Source: a virus
Taxonomy: Duplodnaviria; Caudoviricetes
DNA length: 64,000 nucleotides
IMG/VR virus record: IMGVR_UViG_3300044678_002325
Span: 1-64,000 of that record
Reading direction: 5' to 3' (one strand)
Below are positions 10,382 to 24,593 of the stretch, in pieces (the stretch's first letter is position 1; each line of letters opens with the position of its first letter). The notes under the pieces were generated by a model that searched no databases, had not been told where the DNA came from, and worked only from the letters and a program-made list of their open reading frames with translations. The translations under genes were made by a program, and so were the position numbers.

Positions 10382-10404
10382 AATTTCTTTTTTTAAAATG
10401 TTAG

Positions 10405-10487
10405 TACCCAAGGTGGGAGTCGAACCCACAAGTCATTATGACGATTGATCCTAAATCAATTGCGTTTGCCAATTCCGCCACTCAGGC
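10405..10487 (-). tRNA. tRNA-Leu(UAG)
   Basis: Cloverleaf; ATTGA-TTTAGGA-TCAAT; long variable arm. Confidence 0.92.
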
Positions 10488-10724
10488 ATAAATAAATCTT
10501 TTATCTGGGAACTTCCGTATGACTGTCAAAATAGTCGGAGGTAAGTAAGATTTTACTTTACAACATACATACCAGTTTTCTCTATGTATGTTTTTTTTAA
10601 AGGTTAAATCCAAATTTGATTAGATAAACCAATCCTAATACAATAAGTCCAAGCATTGCTGTTGAAAACATATACATTGCAAATTCTTTTTGTTTTTCTG
10701 TTTTACCTTGATTTTCATTTTTCA

Positions 10725-10964
10725 TTATAAAAATTTTTGATAGTCTATAAAATTTTTTTCAATCCACATTTTTCCAGTTACTTCATTATCTTCTTTTTTA
10801 CTTTTTTCATAAATTTCAGACATTACATATCTTTCATTTTGTAACTCATCCCAAAGATAAGAAATAACTATGTTTAATTTTCTTTTTTCCTCTGTCTCAT
10901 GTTTAGCTTCTCTAGCAAGTTTTTCAACTCTGTCTATAACATTTTGAAGGGGTGTGTTTTTCAT
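10725..10964 (-). CDS. Hypothetical protein
   Basis: ORF track, start MKNTPL. Confidence 0.6.
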   Translation of the reverse strand: MKNTPLQNVIDRVEKLAREAKHETEEKRKLNIVISYLWDELQNERYVMSEIYEKSKKEDNEVTGKMWIEKNFIDYQKFL

Positions 10965-10965
10965 A

Positions 10966-11151
10966 TTAATCATTTTTTTTATCATTATCAAGTTCTAACT
11001 GACTTTCACTAAATATATGTAACATACCATTATCAATTAATTCTGCAACAATTCTTGTTTCACCAGATGTGGTTTGGAATACCGCAACAACTATACCTGG
11101 GAATTTGTAACCTTTCGGTTTGTAAACTTTGTCTCCTACTTTAAATTTCAT
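10966..11151 (-). CDS. Small SH3/KOW-like protein
   Basis: MKFKVGDKV...GIVVAVF...FSESQLEL. Confidence 0.6.
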   Translation of the reverse strand: MKFKVGDKVYKPKGYKFPGIVVAVFQTTSGETRIVAELIDNGMLHIFSESQLELDNDKKND

Positions 11152-11177
11152 AATTTTTTTTTAAATAATATAATGAT

Positions 11178-11561
11178 TTATTTGTAAGATGAAAAATATT
11201 TTTCAGTGTAATGTTTTAGAATACCATCACTGTTGGTGTATTTGGTATTAATTGTATTACTGAAGAAAAAACTATTATCATCCAATATAAGCAAGTGTTC
11301 GTCTCTAATGGACTCAAAATTTGTTAATCCATCTGTGTTGAATTGATTAACACGACTTTTAAAATTCTCCAATTTTTCTTTAATACAATTTAAATCAATA
11401 TTTGGAAAAAGATATGTTAATCGTGTCAATGAATTTGGATAGATGAATTGTAGTTTTGAATCTTCTTTAAGAAAGATTAAAATACCAACATTTACTTGTT
11501 CATCCAATACCACTGAAGGTCGGAATTTTAATAAACTATATTCTGCGTTTTTGAAGGTCGT
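11178..11561 (-). CDS. DUF3037-like protein (start uncertain)
   Basis: YSLLKFRPSVVLDEQVNVGIL motif extends upstream of the GTG; no ATG, in-frame ACG at 11561. Confidence 0.55.
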   Translation of the reverse strand, partial: TTFKNAEYSLLKFRPSVVLDEQVNVGILIFLKEDSKLQFIYPNSLTRLTYLFPNIDLNCIKEKLENFKSRVNQFNTDGLTNFESIRDEHLLILDDNSFFFSNTINTKYTNSDGILKHYTEKYFSSYK

Positions 11562-11625
11562 TAGATTTTAATTTAAGTTATCAATTTACATAGAAATAGA
11601 ACTCTTGTACTTCTTTAAAATTTAG

Positions 11626-11698
11626 TACACCCAACAGGATTCGAACCTGTAACCTATTGCTTAGAAGGCAATTGCTCTTCCAGTTGAGCTATGGGTGC
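11626..11698 (-). tRNA. tRNA-Arg(UCU)
   Basis: ATTGC-CTTCTAA-GCAAT; canonical cloverleaf. Confidence 0.95.
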
Positions 11699-11710
11699 TA
11701 ATATATATTG

Positions 11711-11824
11711 TAGTCAAGATAGGATTTGAACCTATACGACCCTTCACATTTCTGTTGCATCGGTCTTTCTTATGGGACAAACGTACACCATCTTACTTAG
11801 CGTCTTCCATTCCGCCACTTGACC
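11711..11824 (-). ncRNA. tRNA-like RNA with expanded anticodon region
   Basis: GGTCAAG/CTTGACT-A acceptor, D arm and T arm intact; ~60-nt non-canonical insert. Confidence 0.75.
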
Positions 11825-11926
11825 ATATTAATTAAAACATCTTGTTCAGGGTAGGTAGGAGCCCGTTACCTTTAATCTGAACCTCTTTGCCATCATTTTC
11901 TTTACGAGTTGATGTTTTAAATGTTG

Positions 11927-11996
11927 TAGTCCTGACAGGATTCGAACCCGCACAATGATTTTTTTCTCAAGCGTTTTCCAATTTCGCCACAGGACT
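11927..11996 (-). ncRNA. tRNA-like RNA (AGTCCTG family), shrunken anticodon arm
   Basis: AGTCCTG/CAGGACT-A acceptor, D arm, TTCGAAT T loop; anticodon arm TGA-GAAAAAAA-TCA. Confidence 0.75.
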
Positions 11997-12005
11997 ATTG
12001 TCTCA

Positions 12006-12037
12006 CAAAATTACGATTTGCTTTTCTAATTTCCAAA
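12006..12037 (-). promoter_or_regulatory. Bacteroidetes primary-sigma promoter
   Basis: TTTG-N20-TAATTTTG; near-identical copies at 15967 and 21754. Confidence 0.75.
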
Positions 12038-12104
12038 TCTTTTTTAAACTTTTTTTATTTTAAGATGAAAGTAATATCCCATTTTTTAGTATCTAAGTAT
12101 TTAA

Positions 12105-12371
12105 TTAAAATTCAAGTTCTTTGATTGAATAATCTGGATATCTTGTTTGGCCAAACTCATCAATCAACATTATATTTATATGAGTACAACCTTTCTTTTT
12201 GGCTGTGGTCAAATTTTCTTCAGTCAGATTAACCAAATTAACACCCCACATTTTTATCCATCCCTCATTTGGATTAAATACCTCATTGATTAGTATATCA
12301 GTTGAGTTGGGATAAGATTTCAATACCTTGTTAATACAAGTGAAGTTTTTTTCTAAAGGATTAGTTATCAT
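12105..12371 (-). CDS. Hypothetical protein
   Basis: ORF track. Confidence 0.6.
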   Translation of the reverse strand: MITNPLEKNFTCINKVLKSYPNSTDILINEVFNPNEGWIKMWGVNLVNLTEENLTTAKKKGCTHINIMLIDEFGQTRYPDYSIKELEF

Positions 12372-12411
12372 TTTGATTTTTTTTGTGTGTTAATATTCAA
12401 CTTACATTACT

Positions 12412-12442
12412 ATAAACCTTTTTACCTATCATTTAGTTCCAA
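12412..12442 (-). promoter_or_regulatory. ECF-sigma-like promoter, copy 1
   Basis: TTGGAACTAAATG-N11-GGTTTAT, three copies with identical spacing. Confidence 0.6.
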
Positions 12443-12462
12443 AGGTTAGAATTATTTTTTAA

Positions 12463-12607
12463 TAGTCCTGACAGGATTCGAACCTGTATTTACAACAACG
12501 CCAATCTGACACATCCGTGCCAGTAGAGGAATTGAACCTCTATATTGTAACCCCCTTTGGTCTAAGTGGATTTGCACCACAGCGTCTTTACATTCCGCCA
12601 CAAGACT
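12463..12607 (-). ncRNA. tRNA-like RNA (AGTCCTG family) with nested second T arm
   Basis: AGTCTTG/CAGGACT-A acceptor; insert contains AGAGG-TTCAATT-CCTCT and CTGGCAC-GGAT-GTGTCAG. Confidence 0.7.
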
Positions 12608-12708
12608 GAGTAAAAGAATACGCTTCTGGGGCTTCACCAGCCTTCTATATTCATGTACCTCTCAGTTAAGAGTCAGTACTGAGCTTTTTTTCTTTGCGTA
12701 TTCCTTTG

Positions 12709-12780
12709 TAGTCCTGACAGGATTCGAACCCATACTCTCTCATCCATACATGAGGCCTTTACCAATTTGGCTACAGGACT
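12709..12780 (-). ncRNA. tRNA-like RNA (AGTCCTG family), 6-nt anticodon loop
   Basis: CTCAT-GTATGG-ATGAG arm; normal acceptor, D and T arms. Confidence 0.75.
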
Positions 12781-12993
12781 AAATTCCACTTTAAATTACA
12801 AACAAAATTACGTATAACAAAATTAATCCCAACAATGCTAAATCAAAATAAATAAAAGTTTTACTAAACTTTATTTCATCTCTCATATGTTCAAGTTTTT
12901 CATTGTTGAGTTTTAATTGCTCTTGTAAAATTTGAAGTTTTGTTTCTAAATCACTCATAATTAAAATTTAAGTTTGTTAAAAAATTTATTTTG

Positions 12994-13064
12994 TAGTCCT
13001 GACAGGATTCGAACCCGCATCCCCCTCTGTTAGGATTCGTGACTTACCATTTGCCTACAAGACT
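12994..13064 (-). ncRNA. tRNA-like RNA (AGTCCTG family), aberrant anticodon arm
   Basis: AGTCTTG/CAGGACT-A acceptor and T arm; no 5-bp stem with 7-nt loop. Confidence 0.7.
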
Positions 13065-13069
13065 TAATT

Positions 13070-13342
13070 TTAATCTAAACTATCTAATCCCATACAATAT
13101 CTTATGAATCTTTGTTCACCATCTTCTGTCTTATATTTGTATTCGCCTTCATAAATTGTATAATAACCTCTGTCATCAAATGGTTCAAAACCGATATACT
13201 CAACACTTTCATCAACTATAGGACCTTCAACACCCATATATTGATTCAAAAGTAATTCAGTTTTTTCAATACTACTTGCAGTTAGAATAGGCATTCTATC
13301 GTTGCTATCCAAGATTACATAAATAAGTGTCATAATATTCAA
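13070..13342 (-). CDS. Hypothetical protein (paralog of 22241-22486)
   Basis: Shares PI..A.....LL..YMG...RFI.YCM..D.L pattern. Confidence 0.65.
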   Translation of the reverse strand: MNIMTLIYVILDSNDRMPILTASSIEKTELLLNQYMGVEGPIVDESVEYIGFEPFDDRGYYTIYEGEYKYKTEDGEQRFIRYCMGLDSLD

Positions 13343-13351
13343 AGTTTTAAA

Positions 13352-13582
13352 TTAAAAATATTTTCTCAAATAATATTCATATGTATCACGACTTGGAGCT
13401 GTGTTATTTTCATCAAGATGAAGAAACATATACCCTTTATAAGCGTTAGATTCATGTAAGATTTTCTCAAGTATAGTAATTATACCATTCTTTTCTTCCA
13501 TTGTGTAATTTGGATTCACCAATTGTTTGTTAGCGAAGTCTTTGATGTACTCAACTTGGATTGTTTTTTTCTCTTTAGCCAT
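13352..13582 (-). CDS. Hypothetical protein
   Basis: ORF track; TATCTTTG promoter element upstream. Confidence 0.6.
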   Translation of the reverse strand: MAKEKKTIQVEYIKDFANKQLVNPNYTMEEKNGIITILEKILHESNAYKGYMFLHLDENNTAPSRDTYEYYLRKYF

Positions 13583-13917
13583 TGTGATTATGTGTTTCAG
13601 TGATTAATAAGACAAAGATAGTTGTTCTTCCTGAATTATTCACTTTTTACTATGTTTTTTTTTAAAAAATTTTGGGGTATCTTCCAAGTTAGCTACACTT
13701 TTTCAATACCCCCTCATCCTGTAGAAACGGACTAGTGTTTTTTGCCTTTTGTAGAAAATGCGAGTGACTATCTCGTGTAAACCGCCAACAATCTGGTCTT
13801 GGCAACCCTGGTTATAGTGACATATTAACCATAATACGTGGTTAGGTTAACATATTAACCAAATACGGCAATTGAGGCTTGCAGACCACCCAATCTATCT
13901 ACATCAATTGGGATTTT

Positions 13918-14003
13918 TGGAGCCGTTTGTCAGATTCGAACTGACGTGTCCTAACGGAACTGGGTTACAAATCCAGTGCAATCAACCACTATGCGAAAAC
14001 GGC
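13918..14003 (-). tRNA. tRNA-Thr(UGU) with long variable arm
   Basis: CTGGA-TTTGTAA-CCCAG; encoded CCA; 14-nt variable region. Confidence 0.85.
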
Positions 14004-14009
14004 AAATAA

Positions 14010-14261
14010 TTATCTTCTTTTATAAACATAGGTTATTGTATCCCCTATTTCATATACATCACTTCTTCTTGTCATTATCAATTCATCACAATCGGTTTTA
14101 TAATTATATCTTTTACCAAATTCAATTGTGGATGGAGATTCTGTAATATACATCGTATCAATTACACACTTCTTAACAATATCACCAGGTTCTATTGTGG
14201 GGTGTTTGTTACAGGATACAAAGATAGTGATTAAAGTTGAAAACCAAAATATTTTTTTCAT
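14010..14261 (-). CDS. Lipoprotein
   Basis: IFVS-C lipobox. Confidence 0.6.
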   Translation of the reverse strand: MKKIFWFSTLITIFVSCNKHPTIEPGDIVKKCVIDTMYITESPSTIEFGKRYNYKTDCDELIMTRRSDVYEIGDTITYVYKRR

Positions 14262-14863
14262 TTTTCCATATTATTTATAACCCAAGTAGAAAATTTCTTA
14301 TGTCCAGAAGGTGCAAAGTGAATCCCATCCCAAGTATCACTATAAAACATTGTAGTGTCCATAGGAATTATTTTACAATTCTTTAATCCAGTTTTTTCTT
14401 TAACCATTAGTTTTTGAAACTCAATGTATCTTCCAACACATCTCTTGGTTGTTTCTGCGTCATACACAGTCTTTGTTGTTACTTGAGCTGGATTAAAACC
14501 CACAATTACAATAGGTTCAATTCCTCTTCTATTACAACTATCAACCATCATCTGAATGTTATTCACCGCCCCTTGTAAATCTACCATAGAAAACGCATCA
14601 TTACATCCACCATAAATGAATACCTGAGAGAAAGCTGAATCTTTTTTAAAACAAGCATTCATTGTCGTTCTCATATAATCCGTTCTAACACCACCTTTTG
14701 CTAGGTTGAGACTTTGATATCCAAAATGTTTTGAAACTTGATCCTGCCACCCACCAGGAGCACAGGTTAAACTATCACCGATATATAATACCCTACGTGG
14801 GGGTGTATATGACCAAGATGTCAATAATACAAATAATACTAAAAATACTAAAAATTTTTTCAT
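14258..14863 (-). CDS. SGNH/GDSL hydrolase, secreted
   Basis: IGDSLT, GGCND, DGIH blocks; signal peptide. Confidence 0.85.
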   Translation of the reverse strand: MKKFLVFLVLFVLLTSWSYTPPRRVLYIGDSLTCAPGGWQDQVSKHFGYQSLNLAKGGVRTDYMRTTMNACFKKDSAFSQVFIYGGCNDAFSMVDLQGAVNNIQMMVDSCNRRGIEPIVIVGFNPAQVTTKTVYDAETTKRCVGRYIEFQKLMVKEKTGLKNCKIIPMDTTMFYSDTWDGIHFAPSGHKKFSTWVINNMEK

Positions 14864-14892
14864 AAATTAAATTTAAAACAACGTTTATTTTT

Positions 14893-14969
14893 TGGTGGAG
14901 GATGTCGGCTTTGCTCCGACCACCTCTTGTGTGCAAAACAAGTGCTCTTGCTGAATGAGCTAATCCCCC
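14893..14969 (-). tRNA. tRNA-Ala(UGC), atypical T loop
   Basis: GGGGGAT/ATCCTCC with G3:U70; TTTGCAC loop; T loop AGCAAAG; CCA encoded. Confidence 0.85.
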
Positions 14970-15042
14970 TTTTTGTATTATGTAATTGTGCTTAAATTTT
15001 AGACGTAAGGAAGCTATACACCAACCGACTTACTTTCTCCTA

Positions 15043-15255
15043 TTACATAATTTTTCTCCATAATCCACCAGCCAAACATTTGAAATCATCAAAACTTGTT
15101 ACTCTGATTGGGAAATCTTCATATTTCCATCTTTTACAAGTTATATGAATTTTACCAGTTATAAAGTCTTTTGTTAAGAAGGTATATAAACCATCACGAG
15201 ACTTAATATGGATTTTATCCCCAGTTCTAAGATTTCTAAATTCAGACTGATTCAT
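15043..15255 (-). CDS. Hypothetical protein
   Basis: ORF track. Confidence 0.55.
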   Translation of the reverse strand: MNQSEFRNLRTGDKIHIKSRDGLYTFLTKDFITGKIHITCKRWKYEDFPIRVTSFDDFKCLAGGLWRKIM

Positions 15256-15271
15256 AATGAATTTTTAAATT

Positions 15272-15346
15272 TGGAGCAGTAAGCGAGACTCGAACTCGCA
15301 ACATCTTGTTTGGAAGACAAGAACTCTACCATTGAGCTATTACTGC
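15272..15346 (-). tRNA. tRNA-Gly(UCC)
   Basis: CTTGT-CTTCCAA-ACAAG; U73; CCA encoded. Confidence 0.95.
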
Positions 15347-15354
15347 AATAAGAG

Positions 15355-15440
15355 TGGGTGCCGAGGGATTCGAACCCCCAAGTTTAGCACGTGGCAACTG
15401 ATTTACAGTCAGCATCCTTCACCAATTTGGATAGACACCC
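15355..15440 (-). tRNA. tRNA-Tyr(GUA)
   Basis: GCTGA-CTGTAAA-TCAGT; long variable arm. Confidence 0.92.
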
Positions 15441-15712
15441 TTTTACAACTTACAAGTTCTACTACAAATAGAACTTAACCCAAATGGTCGACATTTCAAT
15501 CGTAAAGTTTTCAACCCGTTACACAGGTGTTCACTTATTTAAGTCCACCTAACACTAATATTATGTAGTCAGATTCCCAACCTGTTAATTTAATACCCAT
15601 TTGTAGTGCAAGTATTATAAAACTACTATATTAGACGCTACTCAACTTCCATTAGATTGCTTTAGTTCGATTATTTTACTAATCAGTTACCGCCATTAGT
15701 TAAGTTGTTTAG

Positions 15713-15787
15713 TTGCAAGAGTGGGAGTCGAACCCACATGGTACGGCTTATGAGACCGAGCTGGAACCACCTCCAGTCCATCTTGCA
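15713..15787 (-). tRNA. tRNA-Met(CAU) (possibly initiator-type)
   Basis: CGGT-CTCATAA-GCCG; atypical D arm. Confidence 0.8.
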
Positions 15788-15796
15788 ATTTGTTTG

Positions 15797-15868
15797 ACGC
15801 AAGGGTGGGAATCGAACCCACAGCTTCTAGGTTATGAGCCTAGCGGACGACCGTTGCCCTTCCTTGCA
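15797..15868 (-). tRNA. tRNA-Met(CAU)
   Basis: CTAGG-CTCATAA-CCTAG. Confidence 0.85.
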
Positions 15869-15878
15869 TAATGTTTTG

Positions 15879-15951
15879 TACACCATACGGGATTTGAACC
15901 CGTGACTCCTCCGTGAAAGGGAGGTGACTTATACCCCTTGTCGAATGGTGC
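15879..15951 (-). tRNA. tRNA-Glu(UUC)
   Basis: CCTCC-CTTTCAC-GGAGG. Confidence 0.93.
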
Positions 15952-15966
15952 GTTTTTATTGTATCA

Positions 15967-15998
15967 CAAAATTACGATTTGATTTTCTTAATTCCAAA
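15967..15998 (-). promoter_or_regulatory. Bacteroidetes primary-sigma promoter
   Basis: TTTG-N20-TAATTTTG. Confidence 0.75.
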
Positions 15999-16019
15999 TC
16001 TTTTTTAAACTTTTTTTTG

Positions 16020-16103
16020 TACCCAGGGCGGGACTCGAACCCGCACAACCTTACTGGTCACAAGATTTTAAGTCTTGCGTGGCTACCATTACACCACCTA
16101 GGC
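16020..16103 (-). tRNA. tRNA-Leu(UAA)
   Basis: CAAGA-CTTAAAA-TCTTG; long variable arm. Confidence 0.95.
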
Positions 16104-16287
16104 AAAATAAAGAGAAGTTTTGAATAAGAACTCTCCACTTCTCTTTTTGATATCTTGTATTCGTTATGGTGAATATCAAGTCACCATAATATAACTTATG
16201 TTGCCTTCGTCCGCCCTAATTGACAATAAGTAAACTCCTTAGAACGTAAGTCACATCTTAATCTCGTGACATAGATATTATTTTAAT

Positions 16288-16434
16288 TTACCACCAATGA
16301 CCAATATCAGTCATATCATCCCACCATTTTGCTACCCAAGAATCTGGATATTTTTTTATGATATAGTTACCAATAAAACCCAAAAGCATTATAAAAATAG
16401 CAAGAATAATAAAGTTTATCATAAAGTTTGTCAT
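16288..16434 (-). CDS. Small membrane protein (48 aa)
   Basis: MTNFMINFIILAIFIMLLGFIG...WW*; downstream of ECF-like promoter. Confidence 0.55.
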   Translation of the reverse strand: MTNFMINFIILAIFIMLLGFIGNYIIKKYPDSWVAKWWDDMTDIGHWW

Positions 16435-16460
16435 AATCTATTTTTTTAAGTTACATTATT

Positions 16461-16491
16461 ATAAACCAACCTTCATCTCATTTAGTTCCAA
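16461..16491 (-). promoter_or_regulatory. ECF-sigma-like promoter, copy 2
   Basis: TTGGAACTAAATG-N11-GGTTTAT. Confidence 0.6.
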
Positions 16492-16508
16492 CTTTTAAAA
16501 CTTTTTTT

Positions 16509-16583
16509 TGGCGGTACCAAGGGGAATCGAACCCCTACCATAAGAGTGACAACCTTATATTCTTGCCGTTAAACTATGGTACC
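16509..16583 (-). tRNA. tRNA-Asp(GUC)
   Basis: TAAGG-TTGTCAC-TCTTA; G73; CCA encoded. Confidence 0.93.
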
Positions 16584-16615
16584 AAATATTTTTCCCTCAA
16601 TTTCAATGAACATCA

Positions 16616-16647
16616 CAAAGATACAATTACTAATTCACATTTTCAAA
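16616..16647 (-). promoter_or_regulatory. Bacteroidetes primary-sigma promoter followed by boxA-like GTTCATTGAAAT
   Basis: TTTG-N20-TATCTTTG. Confidence 0.65.
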
Positions 16648-16654
16648 CACTCTC

Positions 16655-16690
16655 AAAAAAAAATCCATCTTTTTTTAGGAAGATGGATTT
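16655..16690 (-). terminator. Attenuator terminator of tRNA block B
   Basis: AAATCCATCTT-CCTAAAAA-AAGATGGATTT plus T run. Confidence 0.8.
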
Positions 16691-16717
16691 GATTTTATTA
16701 ACAATTAAAACCTTATA

Positions 16718-16789
16718 TCATACCATCTCCATCCGAGGATTTCTACCCTCAGCTCCAGTCGTTAAGTCCATATAGAGATTGTGTTTCAT
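16718..16789 (-). CDS. Putative leader peptide B (MKHNLYMDLTTGAEGRNPRMEMV)
   Basis: 23-codon ORF just upstream of the terminator; its 3' GGAGATGG is complementary to the terminator 5' arm CCATCTTC. Confidence 0.75.
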   Translation of the reverse strand: MKHNLYMDLTTGAEGRNPRMEMV

Positions 16790-16850
16790 TTGTGAAGTTT
16801 TTACTATTTTTTTATTAAATATAACGATATAATACAAAAGGTCAAGTTGG

Positions 16851-17168
16851 TTACAAAAATTGTGAAATAATTTGTGCTACTTTATACCCTGTGAATGCTC
16901 CTAATGCCGCTGAACCAGGTAAAACAATGAATTTACCAAAATTACTTTCATATTTCGCACGATTAACAATATAAGATATTAAGATATAATATAAGAAAAA
17001 ATTAATCAATACGGCAAGATCAATTTCTTTGGCCATAAACACAACTATTGAATTACCAAAGAAACCCCAACTGAAGTTAATCAATGTTTCTCTTATTAAT
17101 TCACTAACAGATGTCTTAGCATCGGCTACCTTAATTTCTTTTGTAAATATATTTTTTTTCTTTTTCAT
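16851..17168 (-). CDS. Membrane protein
   Basis: Three hydrophobic segments. Confidence 0.65.
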   Translation of the reverse strand: MKKKKNIFTKEIKVADAKTSVSELIRETLINFSWGFFGNSIVVFMAKEIDLAVLINFFLYYILISYIVNRAKYESNFGKFIVLPGSAALGAFTGYKVAQIISQFL

Positions 17169-17170
17169 AA

Positions 17171-17686: not shown

Positions 17687-17695
17687 ATTTTTTTG

Positions 17696-18079: not shown

Positions 18080-18082
18080 ATC

Positions 18083-18715
18083 TTAATTATTATCATAAAA
18101 CATATAATCAGAATCCTCAGTTTGCCATTTCTCGAACCCCTCACAATTATAATAATCCTTATTCACCAAATAATCTGGCTTCTCAGGGAAAGATTTTGTG
18201 ACAAAGGATGGTTCTGCCCATTTTATTCTATTATTTGGTTGTAGGGCAATCTGGCCATTATTCAGTAGTATTATGTGGTGTGATTTATGTTCCATTGGAT
18301 CCTCAGCCAAAGTAAAGTCACTATTCAAATCACTAGAACCCCAATTTATTGTGGCATAATAACTTCCATCATACCATTTCTTATCTTTCATAAAGACTGA
18401 AACTTTGGTATCATAGATATAACTTAAATGATGTACCGAGAAATTGTATGAAAAACAATTCCATATTTGAAGATAATGGAATGGTAAATCAACATCAGGT
18501 GATTTGGGTTCAGTTAATAATGCGTGAGATGGAAGTTTATCTCTCATAACACCATTATTAAATAATACTTGGAATAATGCCGCTTGTCCTGGTAAACATC
18601 TAATTGAGATTATAACACCCTCAGTAAATTCACCAAATCCCTTCTTATTTTGATATAGATATTCATTTCGAACATATACCTTTAAGGGGAAAAAATTACT
18701 TTCAATATAAGCCAT
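18083..18715 (-). CDS. Conserved phage hypothetical protein
   Basis: YVRNEYL...LQIWNCFSY...EHKSHH...ALQPNNRI pattern. Confidence 0.7.
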   Translation of the reverse strand: MAYIESNFFPLKVYVRNEYLYQNKKGFGEFTEGVIISIRCLPGQAALFQVLFNNGVMRDKLPSHALLTEPKSPDVDLPFHYLQIWNCFSYNFSVHHLSYIYDTKVSVFMKDKKWYDGSYYATINWGSSDLNSDFTLAEDPMEHKSHHIILLNNGQIALQPNNRIKWAEPSFVTKSFPEKPDYLVNKDYYNCEGFEKWQTEDSDYMFYDNN

Positions 18716-18717
18716 AA

Positions 18718-19038
18718 TTAATTTGTTGGTATGTCATTTGTTCCATACTCTCTTATCAAATAGTCGGTAAAATTTTCCACACTTTCAACATTAAATTCAA
18801 TTTTATCGTGCCAAATCTTTTTTTCAATTTTTTCATACAACCACCAACCAACTAAATCCTGTATCCATCCGTATTGTTCGTCTTTTTCTTTTCTGAGGAT
18901 GGTCGGAATGGACTTCTCAAGTTGCGAAATGGTGTTGTCAAAGTCAAGTAAATCAACTCCCATAGTATAGAGCTTGTGTACCTTCTCATCTTGTTCTTTG
19001 ATTTTTGTTAATGTTTCGATTATGTAATCCCTTACCAT
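18718..19038 (-). CDS. Hypothetical protein
   Basis: Start trimmed to MVRDY (the longer ORF overlaps tRNAs). Confidence 0.6.
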   Translation of the reverse strand: MVRDYIIETLTKIKEQDEKVHKLYTMGVDLLDFDNTISQLEKSIPTILRKEKDEQYGWIQDLVGWWLYEKIEKKIWHDKIEFNVESVENFTDYLIREYGTNDIPTN

Positions 19039-19069
19039 AATAAATAGTTTTAATTGTTGATAAAATTTG

Positions 19070-19142
19070 CATAGATGGAGGGACTCGAACCCCCAACCGG
19101 CTGGTTTGGAATCAGCAACTCTACCAATTGAGCTACATCTAC
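19070..19142 (-). tRNA. tRNA-Trp(CCA)
   Basis: GCTGA-TTCCAAA-CCAGC; G73. Confidence 0.92.
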
Positions 19143-19151
19143 ATTTGTTTG

Positions 19152-19236
19152 AGGTTGGGGAGGGATTCGAACCCACGATGAATTTTCATTCGATAGTTTT
19201 GCAGACTAGTGCCTTAACCAACTCGGCCACCCAACC
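19152..19236 (-). tRNA. tRNA-Cys(GCA) with long variable arm
   Basis: TAGT-CTGCAAA-ACTA; U73; 16-nt variable region. Confidence 0.88.
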
Positions 19237-19258
19237 CTATTGTTTCTTTTTATATTAC

Positions 19259-19717
19259 CTATAACTCAATAAAGATATCATAAGTTCCATTTTCATAGTA
19301 ATTTGTTGAACAATTTCTTAATATGATACCATCATAATTTTTTTCAATTAACATTTCTTTATATTTGTCAACCCCACCGAATTTGTATATTTCATCCATA
19401 TAAACTTGAAATGAGTCATAATCTTCATCATCTGAATTAACAACATATGGATTTTCAAATTTTATTTCTTTAGTTAAAATCTTACCCTTAGAACCTTTTA
19501 TATTTTCATATCTATCAGTATCAACAGAATAATCAATAAGTCCAGCAAACCATTTGGCCATAGTTAAATTATCTGTCCAAAATACACCCATTCCATCATC
19601 AGATACTTTACCATAGGTAGCGTTAATTCTATCTCCAATACCACGATATACTATAGTATAATTTTCAAATTCTTCTTTTAAAATTGTTTTAATACGTATT
19701 CTTAAATCTTTCATCAT
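19259..19717 (-). CDS. Putative ADP-ribosyltransferase-fold (ART-PolyVal-like) protein
   Basis: VYRG...GVFWTDN...A.WFA...NPYV...YDGII pattern; N-terminal IKTILKEE motif. Confidence 0.55.
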   Translation of the reverse strand: MMKDLRIRIKTILKEEFENYTIVYRGIGDRINATYGKVSDDGMGVFWTDNLTMAKWFAGLIDYSVDTDRYENIKGSKGKILTKEIKFENPYVVNSDDEDYDSFQVYMDEIYKFGGVDKYKEMLIEKNYDGIILRNCSTNYYENGTYDIFIEL

Positions 19718-19953
19718 TTTTTTACTATAAATATATTAAATCCCCCAACTTCACCCCACTCGTCAGTGGGGGATAGGTTGAGTTAAGCTTCCTAACTTAT
19801 ACCTTGGGCTATTCGTTTACAAGCAACAAGACCACAGTAGTGAGCAGTTCTTATGGGATGCCTCGTGGTACTATTATAACATAAAGAACAATTACCTACT
19901 AGCACCTCACACCGAAATTGTAGGCAGGCTCGGTCCCTTAATTGTTCAAATCT

Positions 19954-20202
19954 TTATTTCACGATTGTCTGTATTCCCAAATCTTTGGGGTGTTTTCCAC
20001 TTAGTTTATGAGTCACAGACCCATCACAAGTTGTAAAATACTTGTATCCTTTATCCCAAAATCGATAGACCTTACATCCATCAACTTTAAATAGAAGCTC
20101 AACGTTATAATTCGCATTATCTGTTTTTAGTTCTTCTATACCTTCTCTTTGACAACTAAGGAATAATACAGAAATTAATCCAAGGAATAATATTTTTTTC
20201 AT
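19954..20202 (-). CDS. Lipoprotein (DUF4884-like)
   Basis: LFLS-C lipobox; VELLFKVDGCKVYRFWD. Confidence 0.7.
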   Translation of the reverse strand: MKKILFLGLISVLFLSCQREGIEELKTDNANYNVELLFKVDGCKVYRFWDKGYKYFTTCDGSVTHKLSGKHPKDLGIQTIVK

Positions 20203-20231
20203 CGTTTTTGTAATTTAAAAATTATTTAATG

Positions 20232-20316
20232 TGTCCTTACCTAGATTCGAACTAGGATTATACTTCTCGTCTCCACTTTGTAAGAGTGGGATGTTTAACC
20301 ATTACACCATAAGGAC
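20232..20316 (-). tRNA. tRNA-Val(UAC) with long variable region
   Basis: CCACT-CTTACAA-AGTGG; 16-nt variable region. Confidence 0.85.
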
Positions 20317-20513
20317 TATTTATAAAAGAATGATTGGGCTATACTGATAATTGTACTCCAATAGAACCGAGACCGCGTATCTTAGTTACCTTTCCTAGTT
20401 TACAGTCAAAGTCCTGAACTTTCGTACCATCCTTAATTTTTATTTTCAGACCCATAATGTCAAAAAATATGTCTACTATTTTCTAATAACACCTTTCGTA
20501 ACTTATTGTGTTG

Positions 20514-20588
20514 TGACCCTGGGGAGATTTGAACTCCCGCTCCCAATATTAAAAGTATTGTGCTTTAAACCAGCTAAGCTACAGGGTC
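20514..20588 (-). tRNA. tRNA-Lys(UUU)
   Basis: CAATA-CTTTTAA-TATTG. Confidence 0.93.
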
Positions 20589-20801
20589 ATTTGTTATTTT
20601 TTTAAGTGAGTTACATCTACATAACACATTGAAGTAATGAATTGGTTCTATATGGTAGTTATTTTTTTCATCCAAATAAATCACCACTTCCATATCCACA
20701 ATTGCTCTAATTTCGATGTGTTTATTGTTTGGATTATCTTCACTATAATCAATAAACAACTTATCACCAACCTTAAATTCACCAATTTTTACATTAACCA
20801 T
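20574..20801 (-). CDS. Hypothetical protein
   Basis: ORF between tRNAs; 3' end overlaps tRNA-Lys. Confidence 0.5.
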   Translation of the reverse strand: MVNVKIGEFKVGDKLFIDYSEDNPNNKHIEIRAIVDMEVVIYLDEKNNYHIEPIHYFNVLCRCNSLKKITNDPVA

Positions 20802-20817
20802 AATTTATTAAAATTTG

Positions 20818-20891
20818 CGTCCCAGGTAGGATTCGAACCTACGATCACTCGATTAACAGTCGAGAGCTCTAAACCACTGAGCTACTGAGAC
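20818..20891 (-). tRNA. tRNA-Asn(GUU)
   Basis: CTCGA-CTGTTAA-TCGAG; G73. Confidence 0.95.
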
Positions 20892-20899
20892 ATTTGTTG

Positions 20900-20974
20900 T
20901 TGTCCTGGTGAGGCTCGAACTCACGACTTTTCGCGTATCAGACGAATACTCTAAACCAACTGAGTTACAGGACA
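20900..20974 (-). tRNA. tRNA-Ile(GAU)
   Basis: TTCGT-CTGATAC-GCGAA. Confidence 0.92.
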
Positions 20975-20989
20975 TTGTTAAAATTGTTG

Positions 20990-21063
20990 TGGTTCCACTA
21001 GGACTTGAACCTAGAACCTACCGATTATGAGTCGGGTGCTCTAACCAATTGAGCTATAGAACC
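20990..21063 (-). tRNA. tRNA-CAU, probably Ile2 (lysidine)
   Basis: CCGA-CTCATAA-TCGG; body resembles ileX-type tRNAs. Confidence 0.8.
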
Positions 21064-21076
21064 TTTAAAAATCTTG

Positions 21077-21148
21077 TATAGGTGACTGGGATTGAACCAG
21101 CGACCACTAGTTCCCAAAACTAGCACTCTACCTCTGAGCTACACCTAT
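21077..21148 (-). tRNA. tRNA-Pro(UGG)
   Basis: CTAGT-TTTGGGA-ACTAG. Confidence 0.92.
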
Positions 21149-21308
21149 ATTATTAAACCATATATAAATCCAAACAAAAGAACAATTAGAAATATAATTC
21201 CAACTATAAACAAGTCTGAGTTCTTTGTTTTGTAAGACAAAATTAAGAATAAGATTCCAATTATCAAAAATAAAAGACCAATAATTACTAACATTTTTTA
21301 ATTTTTTG

Positions 21309-21402
21309 TAGTCCTGACAGGATTCGAACCCGTAACGTACATCTCATATCTTTGATGCAAGCACTTGATAATAGCTGCGTCTACCAATTCCGCCACAGGA
21401 CT
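21309..21402 (-). ncRNA. tRNA-like RNA (AGTCCTG family)
   Basis: Perfect acceptor, D and T arms; irregular anticodon arm plus extra hairpin. Confidence 0.75.
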
Positions 21403-21614
21403 ATATTTAACTTATCTAAAATTTTCTCATATTTACAAAACAACAATCCAACTTTTTAGGTCTATCTATGTCATCTCTACCGTCAATTCTTGATTTTATA
21501 TAGTCAAAGATTTCTTTTTGTTCATCAGCGTTTAAACTATTGTTGATAGTTTCAATTCTAATCTCAAATCTTACCCAATAATGTGTGTCCATAATTTTAG
21601 TTTTTAATTTTTAG

Positions 21615-21744
21615 TAGTCCTGACAAGATTCGAACTTGTATTAAGCTACATATTGTTTATGTTAGACCTTTCGCTCCAATCCTAGTATTAAGGAGTGTCT
21701 GAACATTCAATCTTCACTCTACCCTTAACTTTCGCCACAGGACT
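21615..21744 (-). ncRNA. tRNA-like RNA (AGTCCTG family), 130 nt
   Basis: AGTCCTG/CAGGACT-A acceptor and ACAAG-TTCGAAT-CTTGT T arm enclosing a long irregular hairpin. Confidence 0.7.
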
Positions 21745-21753
21745 ATTGTATCA

Positions 21754-21785
21754 CAAAATTACGATTTCATTTTCTAATTTCCAAA
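21754..21785 (-). promoter_or_regulatory. Bacteroidetes primary-sigma promoter
   Basis: TTTG-N20-TAATTTTG directly upstream of a tRNA-like RNA. Confidence 0.75.
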
Positions 21786-21898
21786 CACTTTGGAATATTT
21801 TTCTTCATTTAATATGATTAGGTGGGTCGCTCATCTCCACTGTCTGCATTCCTTTGAGTTATGAACTCAACTGCTCTAATCTTATTAATATTTTTCTG

Positions 21899-21985
21899 CG
21901 GAGGACAGAGGACACGAACCCCACACCATACTTGGTGCCACTCGCTTAGCAGGCGGTGGTAACGACCCTGATTACTTTATCCTCC
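21899..21985 (-). tRNA. tRNA-Ser(GCU)
   Basis: CGC-CTGCTAA-GCG; long variable arm; G73. Confidence 0.85.
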
Positions 21986-21990
21986 AATTG

Positions 21991-22143
21991 TTAAATCCTT
22001 TTTCTTGAATTTTCTAAAATTGTTATTCCTAATAGAATTATACCAAGTACAATAAGTGTGTTAGGTGTACCTATTAATTTTGGAAGGGGCAAAAGAATAC
22101 TAAGCACAAAACCGAAAATCAAGATGAACAATAAATTTCTCAT
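21991..22143 (-). CDS. Small two-TM protein (50 aa)
   Basis: MRNLLFILIFGFVLSILLP...; downstream of ECF-like promoter. Confidence 0.55.
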   Translation of the reverse strand: MRNLLFILIFGFVLSILLPLPKLIGTPNTLIVLGIILLGITILENSRKRI

Positions 22144-22179
22144 TTTTTTAAACTTTTAATTGTTTCTAAATTCATTTAC

Positions 22180-22210
22180 ATAAACCCCTTCCCTTACCAT
22201 TTAGTTCCAA
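22180..22210 (-). promoter_or_regulatory. ECF-sigma-like promoter, copy 3
   Basis: TTGGAACTAAATG-N11-GGTTTAT. Confidence 0.6.
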
Positions 22211-22240
22211 GATTTAATTTTTTTTTGTGGTATCTAAGTT

Positions 22241-22486
22241 TTAAATTAATTCATCTGTCGGCATACAATACATAATGAATCGGTGTGAACCATACTCATT
22301 TTCGTAATAATAACTTCCTTGATTTACCTCATCATTATTGGGTTCAAACATTATGTATTTAGAAGTGGGGTCAACACCAATTCCCATATATTTGTCTAAT
22401 AATTCCAACACTCTTTGAAGGGTTGTTGCGGAACAAATAGGTATCCCCCATTTTTCGTGAACAATAAAATACATTGTATTTTTCAT
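22241..22486 (-). CDS. Hypothetical protein (paralog of 13070-13342)
   Basis: Shared motif pattern. Confidence 0.65.
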   Translation of the reverse strand: MKNTMYFIVHEKWGIPICSATTLQRVLELLDKYMGIGVDPTSKYIMFEPNNDEVNQGSYYYENEYGSHRFIMYCMPTDELI

Positions 22487-22509
22487 ATTTGTTATTTTAA
22501 ATTTTTTTG

Positions 22510-22582
22510 TAGTCCCAGCCCGATTTGAACGGGCATCTTATCATCCGTAGTGATAGATTCTAATCCATTGAACTATGGGACT
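22510..22582 (-). tRNA. tRNA-Arg(ACG)
   Basis: TATCA-CTACGGA-TGATA; acceptor AGTCCCA/TGGGACT. Confidence 0.9.
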
Positions 22583-22592
22583 AAATTTGTTG

Positions 22593-22679
22593 CGGAAAGT
22601 TGAGGTGTCGATCCCCATACAATACAATTGTACCTATCGTTTTCAAGACGTAGACCCAGGCCGCTGAGCTTAACTTTCC
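22593..22679 (-). tRNA. tRNA-Ser(UGA)
   Basis: CGT-CTTGAAA-ACG; long variable arm; G73. Confidence 0.85.
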
Positions 22680-22742
22680 AATTTATTTTTTTAATGTAAT
22701 TAGACTTTATTATTTAAATGATATTTATAGTAAAACAAATTT

Positions 22743-23006
22743 ATGAAAAAGATAGTAAGATTAACAGAATCAGATTTAATTAGACTGGTTAAAAGAGTAA
22801 TTAATGAAGACAACTTGAAAGAGTTTGGTTCACGTAAAGATTATGAACATGAAAAAAGCTGGAATACCAAATCTCCAAAAGTATACGATACTCAAAACCC
22901 AGAACAAGATGATGACACTAAAACAATTATGGATTACATTAAAAAATTATTCGGATTAGGTTTAAAACCTAAAGAAATTAGAAAAAAATTAAAAGAATTG
23001 GAATAA
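22743..23006 (+). CDS. MKKIVRLTESDL-motif protein
   Basis: N-terminal repeat-family peptide; TATTTATA upstream. Confidence 0.75.
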   Translation: MKKIVRLTESDLIRLVKRVINEDNLKEFGSRKDYEHEKSWNTKSPKVYDTQNPEQDDDTKTIMDYIKKLFGLGLKPKEIRKKLKELE

Positions 23007-23018
23007 TCTTTATTTAAG

Positions 23019-23091
23019 TAGGTATGATGAGAATCGAACTCACTAAACCAACATCCACAATGTTGTCCCTCTCCATTTGGGTTCATACCTC
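23019..23091 (-). tRNA. tRNA-His(GUG)
   Basis: CAACA-TTGTGGA-TGTTG; encoded G-1, A73. Confidence 0.88.
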
Positions 23092-23268
23092 ATATAATCC
23101 ATTTTCAGATGGTTTTTTGTCCATCTTCTCTGCGAGTTCCTTTTTGCTGATGTCGTTTTCACGCAATAGCTGATTGGTGCGAACCACCAGGTCGGCATAC
23201 CAATCTACAAAGATTTCTACATCTTTCGGTGTGCTTTTCAGCAATCTATCTACGGTTTTGCTTCTCAT
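23083..23268 (-). pseudogene. Truncated XRE-family HTH (antitoxin-like) fragment
   Basis: ...LLRENDISKKELAEKMDKKPSE breaks off before the recognition helix; GC higher than flanks. Confidence 0.55.
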
Positions 23269-23283
23269 TGTCTTATAGTTGTT

Positions 23284-23359
23284 TGGTGGTGGGAGTAGGA
23301 ATCGAACCTACATTAAATAATCTTCAGCTATTCGCCTTGACCAACTTGGCAATCCCACC
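23284..23359 (-). tRNA. tRNA-Phe(GAA)
   Basis: AATAG-CTGAAGA-TTATT; CCA encoded. Confidence 0.9.
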
Positions 23360-23364
23360 ATAAT

Positions 23365-23559
23365 TTATATTTGATTACCTTCTTTTAAAGTTGAAGACAT
23401 TTCACTACCATCCCCAAATTCTTGGTAAAAATAAACAAACATTTTTCCATTAATGTCAGTTCCTTTATGTAAAATTCTTGTGACTTTTTTTAGTTTACCA
23501 AACATATTTGGAATAACATCCCCAACTTCAAGATTTAAAATTTGATTTTTAGTAATCAT
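23365..23559 (-). CDS. Hypothetical protein
   Basis: ORF track. Confidence 0.55.
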   Translation of the reverse strand: MITKNQILNLEVGDVIPNMFGKLKKVTRILHKGTDINGKMFVYFYQEFGDGSEMSSTLKEGNQI

Positions 23560-23659
23560 AAAATAAATATTTTAAGTATGAAAAAATTTAGAGTAAGTAT
23601 CCACCACGTTTAAGGCTGGTTGTGGACAGTGCTACCTACGACCTTTCCTTACTCTCCCA

Positions 23660-23691
23660 CAAAATTACAACCCTTTATTTTTATTTCCAAA
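23660..23691 (-). promoter_or_regulatory. Bacteroidetes primary-sigma promoter
   Basis: TTTG-N20-TAATTTTG. Confidence 0.7.
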
Positions 23692-23767
23692 TGTTTTATC
23701 AAGTTTTTTTTAAAGTGGTCAAATTTAACCATTTTAAACTACACCATATTTATGATAAAATAGAATT

Positions 23768-24517
23768 ATGAAAATTATAATTAATGAATCCCAATATAAA
23801 ACAATCCTTAAAGAATTTATGGGTTCAATTGAATCAAGTAAGTTTATGAAAATTTTTAAAAAATTTTTGGAGGATAAAAATATTGTTATACTTTATGATG
23901 ATTTTAGAGAATTTACAATGCACACAAGTATAAAAATACCTAAAACAAACTTTGATGATTATCTAACCATATTTTCAGAGATTGAAAAATTTATTGAAAT
24001 TTATGGGTGGTTTATTTCAAGTTATTTAGTGATTTATAATCACCCTAATACATCAATTTATGATGAAAAGGACATTAAATTCTTAGATTATAGAAAATTA
24101 GTTGATTGGCTAAAAACGAATGAGTCAAATATCCAACTAAAACATATAATGTTAAATTTAGAAAAAAAATACACAGAACAAAATAAAGGCCATAATGTTT
24201 TTTACCACGTAACAGATAAGAAAAACACTGAAAAAATAATGACTTATGGATTAAGACCTAGAAAATCACAAAATAAATATTTCAATTATTCTGATAGAAT
24301 TTACCTAGCTGATTATGTCAAAGTAGCTTATTATATAAACGACCTTTTTAAAGATCCTAACGCCAAAACTGATTATGGTAAAGAAGGTGTTGTCGTATTT
24401 GAAATTACCTTACCTGATTCATTTAAAACTTATTTTGACCCAAAAGCACCATTGTCATCCTATACCTTAGAACCAATACCACCTAAATATATAGAAATTT
24501 ACGATTATCTAGATTAG
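23768..24517 (+). CDS. MKIIINESQ-motif protein with C-terminal ART-fold (Tpt1/KptA-like) domain
   Basis: FYHVT...I...GLRP...IYL...VVFEI...IPPKYI pattern. Confidence 0.65.
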   Translation: MKIIINESQYKTILKEFMGSIESSKFMKIFKKFLEDKNIVILYDDFREFTMHTSIKIPKTNFDDYLTIFSEIEKFIEIYGWFISSYLVIYNHPNTSIYDEKDIKFLDYRKLVDWLKTNESNIQLKHIMLNLEKKYTEQNKGHNVFYHVTDKKNTEKIMTYGLRPRKSQNKYFNYSDRIYLADYVKVAYYINDLFKDPNAKTDYGKEGVVVFEITLPDSFKTYFDPKAPLSSYTLEPIPPKYIEIYDYLD

Positions 24518-24520
24518 ATG

Positions 24521-24593
24521 TTCCCCCTGATGGAATTGAACCACCATCCTCAGAACCAAAATCTGATGTAATAAGCCTTTATACCAAGGAGGA
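24521..24593 (-). tRNA. tRNA-Gln(UUG)
   Basis: TCAGA-TTTTGGT-TCTGA; U1-A72. Confidence 0.9.

Follow-up and report, generated by a model that had tools for sequence, protein, structure and literature searches.

The window analysed here is a 64,000-nucleotide (nt) stretch of viral DNA, positions 1-64,000 of the 78,750-base record IMGVR_UViG_3300044678_002325, and carries on its minus strand, between positions 10404 and 24593, a transfer RNA (tRNA) island whose 25 tRNA genes have 23 anticodons and together serve all 20 amino acids. One decoder is present per codon box, with all eight family boxes and all split boxes covered. Seven family boxes (Ala, Gly, Pro, Thr, Val, Ser-UCN, and Leu-CUN) have only a tRNA with uridine at the wobble position (U34), the CGN box is decoded by ACG, and every split box has a single tRNA, with G34 for NNY codons, U34 for NNR codons, and CCA for Trp; three species have the anticodon CAU. 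The number of genes, their span, and this anticodon pattern are as claimed in the original prediction, an earlier reading of the same DNA, 24 of the genes being called by ARAGORN and the remaining one, Ser-UGA, having been found by a scan for T arms. The set is the theoretical one-per-box minimum and not merely a collection of cognates of the commonest codons.

ARAGORN made 26 calls on the window, all on the minus strand within 10404-24593, and the identical 26 calls on the full record, with none beyond the island. Cloverleaf tRNAs account for 24 of these calls (Leu-UAG, Leu-UAA, Arg-UCU, Arg-ACG, Thr-UGU, Ala-UGC, Gly-UCC, Pro-UGG, Val-UAC, Ser-GCU, Tyr-GUA, His-GUG, Gln-UUG, Asn-GUU, Lys-UUU, Asp-GUC, Glu-UUC, Cys-GCA, Trp-CCA, Phe-GAA, Ile-GAU, and three CAU species), and the other two are aberrant, at 12708-12780 (anticodon loop of 6 nt) and 21308-21402 (“Asp-atc,” with a 3-bp stem). 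Rfam, at the gathering score with default filters, matched 21 of the 25 regular genes together with six odd tRNA-like elements; permissive filters raised this to 23 by adding His (49.1 bits) and the CAU gene at 15713 (37.0 bits), and Ser-GCU and Ser-UGA were never matched, even with permissive filters. Standard tools therefore recover 23 (Rfam, permissive) or 24 (ARAGORN) of the 25 genes. A relaxed cloverleaf scan of both strands over 9.5-25.5 kilobases (kb), allowing 7/5, 8/4, and 9/3 acceptor/T-stem lengths, recovered 25 of 32 known elements and no new ones.

Along the minus strand of the island, with ARAGORN score and Rfam bits in parentheses, lie tRNA-Leu(UAG) at 10404-10487 (84 nt; 114.1, 53.2), tRNA-Arg(UCU) at 11625-11698 (121.2, 73.8), tRNA-Gly(UCC) at 15272-15346 (120.9, 71.2), tRNA-Tyr(GUA) at 15354-15440 (87 nt; 110.3, 53.6), tRNA-Glu(UUC) at 15878-15951 (114.8, 57.8), tRNA-Leu(UAA) at 16019-16103 (119.4, 55.6), tRNA-Asp(GUC) at 16509-16583 (121.5, 63.7), tRNA-Trp(CCA) at 19069-19142 (115.5, 59.7), tRNA-Lys(UUU) at 20513-20588 (119.1, 69.5), tRNA-Asn(GUU) at 20817-20891 (122.4, 72.6), tRNA-Ile(GAU) at 20899-20974 (113.4, 64.5), tRNA-Pro(UGG) at 21076-21148 (119.5, 66.1), tRNA-Arg(ACG) at 22509-22582 (117.5, 58.7), tRNA-Phe(GAA) at 23284-23359 (115.1, 63.2), and tRNA-Gln(UUG) at 24520-24593 (115.9, 54.5). 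The 3′ CCA is encoded in only five of the 25 genes (Gly, Asp, Phe, Thr, and Ala).

Three genes share the anticodon CAU. The gene at 15712-15787 has a weak D arm and is a candidate Met, fMet, or Ile2 tRNA (ARAGORN 104.8; Rfam 37.0 bits with permissive filters only), and that at 15796-15868, with a U1/G72 wobble at the end of the acceptor stem, is a candidate Met or fMet tRNA (109.7; 52.3 bits). The third, at 20989-21063 (115.5; 71.6 bits), adjoins Ile-GAU, and its antisense strand scores 52.4 bits against RF04354, a family that we take to overlap plastid trnI-CAU; the other tRNAs score at most 29.1 bits. It is the likeliest candidate for a lysidine-bearing Ile2 tRNA. The three species would then comprise an initiator Met, an elongator Met, and a lysidine-Ile tRNA.

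The term “canonical” used in the original prediction overstates the regularity of the set, which includes 8/4-type Ser and His genes, long-armed Thr, Val, and Cys genes, and an odd Ala gene. Ser-UGA (22593-22679, 87 nt), missed by both ARAGORN and Rfam and also by a first scan for UGA loops that required four of five stem pairs, was flagged by a T-arm-like hairpin at 22601-22617 in a scan for such hairpins. In its fold an 8-bp acceptor stem is combined with a 4-bp T stem, the D stem has 6 bp and a 4-nt loop, and the anticodon stem, also of 6 bp, contains one bulged A and closes the loop CUUGAAA; the variable arm has 7 bp, and the discriminator is G73. Orthologs were present in eight fetched loci in three sequence variants, and RNAalifold, given four distinct sequences, returned the cloverleaf unprompted in its 8/4 form. 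All 31 pairs are intact, one of them being preserved by a compensatory change (15:22, GC/AU) and three by changes on one side. The T-arm scan, the orthologs, our own cloverleaf scan, and RNAalifold thus rule out the absence of Ser-UGA from the set. A second element considered for this role, scaffold RNA G (21615-21744; see below), has a UGA hairpin but is 130 nt long without a regular D arm, and was rejected once the real gene had been found.

Ser-GCU (21898-21985; ARAGORN 101.2, no Rfam match at E ≤ 1) is identical in four of four arrays and has G73 and a 6-bp anticodon stem with a bulged A; it is fully paired only with an 8-bp acceptor and a 4-bp T stem, one T-stem mismatch remaining in the 7/5 form. 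For Ser-UGA and His (23018-23090; 101.9, 49.1 bits with permissive filters), the stems can be paired as either 8/4 or 7/5. The 8/4 build accounts for the failure of Rfam to detect either Ser gene. Sections of Mukai et al. (2017, PMC5389517) describe 8/4 Ser and His tRNAs occurring together in the tRNA clusters of alphaproteobacterial phages. The genes described here look like further phage examples: Ser-GCU is of 8/4 type, Ser-UGA combines its 8-bp acceptor, 6-bp D stem, and 4-nt D loop with a long variable arm and G73, and Ser and His genes of this type share one cluster, as in the sections cited; serylation and histidylation would follow by analogy. There are two differences, namely that the present phage has promoter motifs of Bacteroidota type, and that in His, along with A73 and a stem that would allow 8/4, the genome encodes a G at position -1, so that a 7/5 form plus G-1 is possible.

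Unusual features of other kinds are found in tRNA-Thr(UGU) (13918-14003; 110.3, 53 bits), tRNA-Val(UAC) (20231-20316; 118.9, 57 bits), and tRNA-Cys(GCA) (19151-19236; 113.4, 56.5 bits), each of which is 86 nt long with a long variable arm. Val has A73 and is identical in three related arrays, and Cys has a Ser-like D arm yet retains U73. Thr and Trp both have an A31/C39 mismatch adjoining the anticodon loop. tRNA-Ala(UGC) (14893-14969; 108.1, 51.1 bits) retains G3:U70 and lacks the D-loop GG and the usual T loop.

The array is conserved in relatives. Three related contigs have the same array order and almost identical anticodons, with blocks at 86-98% identity, and the tRNA genes are conserved in at least five related contigs. 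Locus L024, an unrelated compact array, has 21 tRNAs with 21 anticodons and the same U34/ACG design. At the Ile2 and Ile-GAU positions of locus L055 (3892-3968 and 3982-4058) stand 77-nt genes with a normal acceptor and T arm, in which the anticodon arm follows the acceptor directly and the variable region contains a GG segment resembling a D loop; they score 28.6 and 31.1 bits with Rfam and are not called by ARAGORN.

The three syntenic contigs with the same array order are 75-128 kb long and are rated only 27-43% complete. On this basis the record probably represents about one quarter of a genome of some 280-300 kb, and the absence of capsid, portal, terminase, and polymerase matches (see below) likewise points to a fragment. 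The non-redundancy claimed in the original prediction is therefore provisional: no second isoacceptor was found by ARAGORN in the 78,750-base record or by the cloverleaf scan within 9.5-25.5 kb. Scaffold RNA C has a conserved CAA-containing hairpin, and one relative's scaffold member has a regular Leu-UAA arm. All 25 Rfam tRNA matches of a 128.5 kb relative fall within its array.

Seven further tRNA-like RNAs, absent from the original prediction, lie in the island on the minus strand. These scaffold RNAs share A73 and an almost invariant acceptor helix (AGUCCUG/CAGGACU) as well as a T arm and a D arm of Leu type; their middles, 20 to about 95 bases long in the window members, are entirely different. 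They are RNA E (11711-11824, 114 nt; Rfam tRNA 33.6 bits), with an identical copy in L029/L043; RNA D (11927-11996, 70 nt; 41.1 bits), in which an A-rich loop replaces the anticodon arm; RNA C (12463-12607, 145 nt; 29.8 bits, fold z -2.16), which combines a conserved UGCAAAU hairpin with a second, internal hairpin resembling a T arm; RNA B (12709-12780, 72 nt; 43.7 bits), a cloverleaf with a 6-nt anticodon loop called “???(at)” by ARAGORN (111.2); RNA A (12994-13064, 71 nt; 37.5 bits); RNA F (21309-21402, 94 nt; 38.6 bits), with a Leu-type D arm, a 3-bp “anticodon” stem, and a 6-bp variable arm, called “Asp(atc)” by ARAGORN (112.3) and having a near-identical copy in L001; and RNA G, found by motif search. 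Orthologs of G in L031/L034/L042/L044 show covariation in the T stem, and C differs from its L055 ortholog by two compensatory changes in a 4-bp stem whose closed loop, UGCAAAU, is unchanged. Some population contigs skip 246 bases from 12462 to 12709 (three of four runs at 85% likeness), a weak hint of copy-number variation.

An exact search with 22 bases of the common 3′ half of the scaffold RNAs found 54 stretches in IMG/VR and a single stretch (L059) among the genomes of 185,579 prokaryotic species. The latter is most likely a viral contig binned into a metagenome-assembled genome, since its length and its three matches are those of the viral contig of L038; the family thus occurs in many IMG/VR phage contigs and in no real bacterial genome. 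The fetched loci yielded 47 distinct members of 70-148 nt (median 110), in which each acceptor position is paired in 42-47 of 47 and the discriminator is A in all 47, with a few compensatory changes, counts that are biased toward conservation by the use of the conserved 3′ half to find the members. A covariance model of the family, R1, gives the window members 45-80 bits (E 66.2, D 70.1, C 69.3, B 60.3, A 45.4, F 80.5, and G 62.0), all seven being part of its training set, and ordinary tRNAs at most 41 bits; at E ≤ 1e-6 it has 86 matches in the 54 loci. In other phage contigs the family occurs in varied neighborhoods, near an SPL-like radical-SAM gene or glucosaminidase and SSB genes. Element F had no match in 50,697 phage records, a search of low sensitivity with so short a query, and no description of the scaffold family or of the phage lineage was found in the literature, the supplements of PMC10690425 and PMC5389517 being outside coverage.

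In several other phage contigs (L003, L004, L018, L027, L040, L045, L048, L052, and the L006 group) there are 90-91-nt tRNAs with the anticodon UAU, a long variable arm, and an encoded CCA, whose acceptor and T arm are the same as those of the scaffold family. Elsewhere in the window, 41670-42503 (plus strand) encodes a 277-residue catalytic core of a class II (Asp/Lys/Asn-type) aminoacyl-tRNA synthetase without an anticodon-binding domain; it has at least 593 relatives in IMG/VR, many on contigs over 100 kb, and its product may be an asparagine-synthetase-like or EpmA-like enzyme. In four fetched loci, a paralog of this synthetase has a scaffold-type RNA at a distance of up to about 0.5-2.3 kb. 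A functional link between the two was rejected when the reciprocal test failed, loci centered on the closest synthetase paralogs having the scaffold motif in 0 of 80 and any tRNA in 2 of 80.

A further possibility, which we consider less likely than not, is that the scaffold RNAs are a phage-only “tRNA-chassis” family whose hypervariable cargo of 20-100 nt, replacing the anticodon arm, acts as a decoy or sponge for tRNA-targeting defense nucleases or as a trans-acting small RNA. The chassis would provide processing by RNase P and RNase Z, CCA addition, stability, and perhaps leucylation, and the family would be the Bacteroidota-phage counterpart of RNA1 and RNA2 of phage T5.

The pattern TTTG-N17-21-TAnnTTTG has 16 matches against 5.3 expected, a number reached by none of 100 shuffles. 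We take TTTG / TAnnTTTG to be the Bacteroidota promoter consensus, and the enrichment of these motifs makes a Bacteroidota host probable. Four near-identical promoter-like 32-mers (TTTG ... TAATTTTG) lie within the island on the minus strand, located by a pattern scan at 12006-12037, 15967-15998 (upstream of tRNA-Glu), 21754-21785 (upstream of scaffold RNA G), and 23660-23691, and scaffold RNAs D and G each start 9 nt after a promoter-like -7 box. Two short promoter-driven RNAs that are not tRNA-like are also encoded on the minus strand, a hairpin RNA at 23590-23660 (about 9 bp of stem, then a run of T) and one at 25090-25125 with a T-arm-like hairpin and a G-rich hairpin. Three exact copies of a 13-mer (12430-12442, 16479-16491, and 22198-22210, minus strand; 0.43 expected) lie inside longer similar stretches upstream of small open reading frames (ORFs) and may represent another promoter class or the “attenuators” of the original prediction.

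Small ORFs are interspersed among the tRNA genes of the island, and genes for a GDSL-type lipase/acylhydrolase (14258-14863) and a SET-domain protein (17696-18079) lie between tRNA genes on the minus strand. The sole plus-strand ORF within the island (23768-24517, 249 residues) has no family match and is replaced by 381 other letters in some population contigs. Directly upstream of the island, a DUF2828/DUF7788 protein annotated by PHROGs as “RNA-binding protein” (25203-26609, minus strand) has copies of 93-95% identity beside related arrays and relatives in 710 phage records.

Within 8 kb of the island are an RNA ligase of DRB0094 type (5881-6906, minus strand; NCBIfam TIGR02306 at 214.7 bits against a cut-off of 151, Pfam PF09414 and PF21189), a cyclic-phosphate-processing receiver-domain protein (9497-9919, minus strand; Pfam PF20274, 2.3e-23), an HD-domain protein that weakly matches the hydrolase portion of RelA/SpoT (8904-9494, minus strand), which adjoins the island and is possibly a small alarmone hydrolase, and a transfer-messenger RNA (tmRNA; 2466-2847, plus strand). 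The tmRNA is full-length and scores 76 bits against RF00023 (gathering score 47) over model positions 1-374, with G3:U70 read from the alignment, and was not called by ARAGORN -m. Farther away, the window encodes an FKBP-type prolyl isomerase (48626-49051, plus strand) and a phage homolog of DnaK/Hsp70 (39506-41365, minus strand), whose identity to the DnaK proteins of bacteria and huge phages is 55-67%.

Near-identical sequence occurs in 19 further DNA runs of 19 studies, labeled lake water metagenome or metagenome, which suggests that the phage is widespread. A megablast search for cultured relatives with 15 kb found no match beyond 63-66 bases of tRNA-Lys (16 records). The source, an uncultured freshwater (lake-water) phage, is probably large and probably infects Bacteroidota.

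The closest counterpart among the systems compared is the tRNA region of phage T5 (NC_005859.1, about 28-41.6 kb). There, 25 annotated tRNA features are clustered on one strand among small ORFs and numerous promoters; Thr, Gly, Ser, Leu-CUN, Ala, Val, and Pro are served by U34 tRNAs and the NNY boxes by G34 tRNAs, and the three CAU genes carry the annotations Met, fMet, and Ile2. The T5 region shares at least 20 of the window's 23 anticodons. Eight “stable RNAs with unknown functions” are annotated in T5 as well, three of them as tRNA-like, compared with the seven scaffold RNAs read from sequence here. Its RNA1 resembles these in its Leu-type D arm, T arm, and long middle, and its RNA2 resembles scaffold RNA C in having an internal T-arm-like hairpin. 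RNA1 and RNA2 score only 30.6 and 18.4 bits with R1, for RNA1 the level of an ordinary tRNA; the resemblance is therefore one of architecture, and descent from a common ancestor is not shown. The T5 region differs in having an extra Ser-GGA and a Gln-CUG pseudogene, in lacking Leu-UAA in the stretch viewed, in having HNH endonuclease genes inside its cluster (none was found in the present island), and in the phylum of its host, and sequence relationship to T5-like phages is limited to a 66-base tRNA-Lys match at 91%.

In the minimal sets of Mollicutes and plastids, one U34 tRNA serves each four-codon box, CGN is left to a single ACG tRNA while CGG is hardly used, and separate CAU species act as initiator, elongator, and Ile2, giving a theoretical floor of about 25 species. 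The phage set has the same one-U34-per-box, ACG, and three-CAU design. It differs in sitting atop a full host pool, the minimal set being the cell's sole pool in Mollicutes and plastids, and superwobble rests on unmodified U34, whereas here only DNA was read. Superwobble has been put forward as a hypothesis for minimal tRNA sets in excerpts of PMC13092985.

Codon counts over 87 ORFs (18,538 codons) bear on how such a set might be used. The NNY codons of the seven U34 family boxes number 2,840 (15.3%), and their reading needs extended U34 wobble; NNU is the commonest codon in four of these boxes (Leu-CUN, Val, Ala, and Gly). Rare boxes are covered as well, including CGN (125 codons), Cys (199), and Trp (215). 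Because boxes rich in NNU have U34 without a GNN anticodon and rare boxes are decoded, coverage is favored over the tuning of codon bias. CGG, the rarest codon (3 of 18,538), is unreadable by I34 under classical rules.

With moderate confidence we regard the island as a T5-style tRNA region whose likely function is phage translation on a phage-made decoder pool when host tRNAs are limiting. The 25 genes would supply this pool once host tRNAs run short, whether through phage-driven host shut-off or through host defenses that cleave tRNAs. We predict that the genes would be expressed and charged by host synthetases, that U34 would read by extended wobble, and that A34 of the ACG tRNA would presumably be inosine, reading CGN; the pool would depend on host TilS, TadA, and CCA-adding enzyme. 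The RNA ligase, the cyclic-phosphate receiver protein, and the tmRNA nearby fit the replacement of the host pool. That phages replace host tRNAs is an established hypothesis and not new here: the sustaining of translation by phage tRNAs amid degraded or cleaved host tRNAs is described in parts of PMC11025619, which cites Yang 2021 and Al-Shayeb 2020, and the same replacement or defense-evasion reading appears in van den Berg 2023 (PMC10264068), Azam 2024 (PMC11555353), and Burman 2024 (PMC11464382). The phages treated in these sections likewise combine a large repertoire with RNA-repair genes, and differ in that they are isolates studied by experiment, mostly with few tRNAs, the present set being full and known from its genes. 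The contrast drawn in the original prediction between pool replacement and bias tuning therefore stands as to the one-per-box minimum and the codon usage favoring coverage, and its replacement reading would be an instance of an idea already published.

Several observations weigh against a phage-made replacement pool. At least seven of the 25 genes (both Ser, His, Thr, Val, Cys, and Ala) are of unusual architecture, and the long arm of Thr, Val, and Cys could attract seryl- or leucyl-tRNA synthetase. In relatives, the Ile-GAU and Ile2-like genes are uncalled by ARAGORN and low-scoring rearranged forms stand in their place, so the set is not strictly conserved. Families of major capsid, portal, terminase, and DNA polymerase had no match in the scanned ORFs (70 ORFs with PHROGs, 81 queries with Pfam), and the part of the genome outside the record may therefore carry more tRNA genes. 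The listed runs with near-identical sequence include no RNA runs. A GC content of 29.6% would favor U34 and G34 anticodons under plain codon matching too. This last point leads to the classical hypothesis of codon-bias tuning (set out in parts of PMC11025619), under which the tRNAs would top up decoders of A- and U-ending codons for an AT-rich phage with the host pool remaining the main one. Third codon positions are T in 7,805 codons, A in 6,973, G in 2,228, and C in 1,532, and the U34 of all family boxes bar CGN and the G34 of all NNY boxes suit such usage. We consider tuning unlikely, since every box is served, CGN included (0.7% of codons), with no additional copies for the most used codons; four of the seven family boxes use NNU most, a codon with which U34 forms no Watson-Crick match; and initiator-type CAU species and Trp-CCA cannot tune bias.

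The set could also be complete in name only, its odd members (the 8/4 Ser and His genes, the long-armed Thr, Val, and Cys genes, Ala with its unusual elbow, and the two low-scoring CAU genes) being mischarged, or decoys or regulators, so that host tRNAs would be needed for those boxes. Rfam misses two of the 25 genes wholly and two more under default filters, and a long variable arm, which in bacteria marks Ser, Leu, and Tyr tRNAs, is here found on Thr, Val, and Cys. Allo-type 8/4 tRNAs are Ser-accepting suppressors according to sections of PMC5389517. The seven clearly non-decoding tRNA-like paralogs share the island. Against these points, the odd genes retain identity marks under the accepted rules of tRNA identity (G3:U70 in Ala, U73 with GCA in Cys, G1:C72 with C2:G71 in Thr, and G73 in both Ser genes), are conserved across related arrays, several of them being identical, and include in Ser-UGA a compensatory change, and we think nominal completeness improbable. 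Less probable still is that the set is insurance of host range, allowing growth in hosts that differ in tRNA pools or modification enzymes without replacing the pool. This idea has been published (parts of PMC11025619) and accords with the wide occurrence of near-identical sequence; the independence gained would be limited, as host TilS, TadA, CCA-adding enzyme, and all synthetases are still required.

The island is thus a new example of a T5-style complete tRNA region, a known strategy, in an uncultured freshwater lineage, and its more unusual content is structural, namely the 8/4-type Ser and His tRNAs, the long-armed Thr, Val, and Cys tRNAs, and the phage-specific tRNA-chassis RNA family. 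Sets of this kind are under-counted by standard tRNA finders, since Rfam misses both Ser genes and ARAGORN one of them, and amino acids that seem “missing” in phage tRNA surveys may be artifacts of non-canonical architecture. The widespread and conserved scaffold family provides a comparative handle on the “tRNA-like stable RNAs” of T5 type. As a natural minimum decoder set outside the enterobacterial phages, lying beside a tmRNA and RNA-repair genes, the island lends support to the idea that large phages equip themselves with a self-sufficient decoding layer that goes beyond the adjustment of codon bias.

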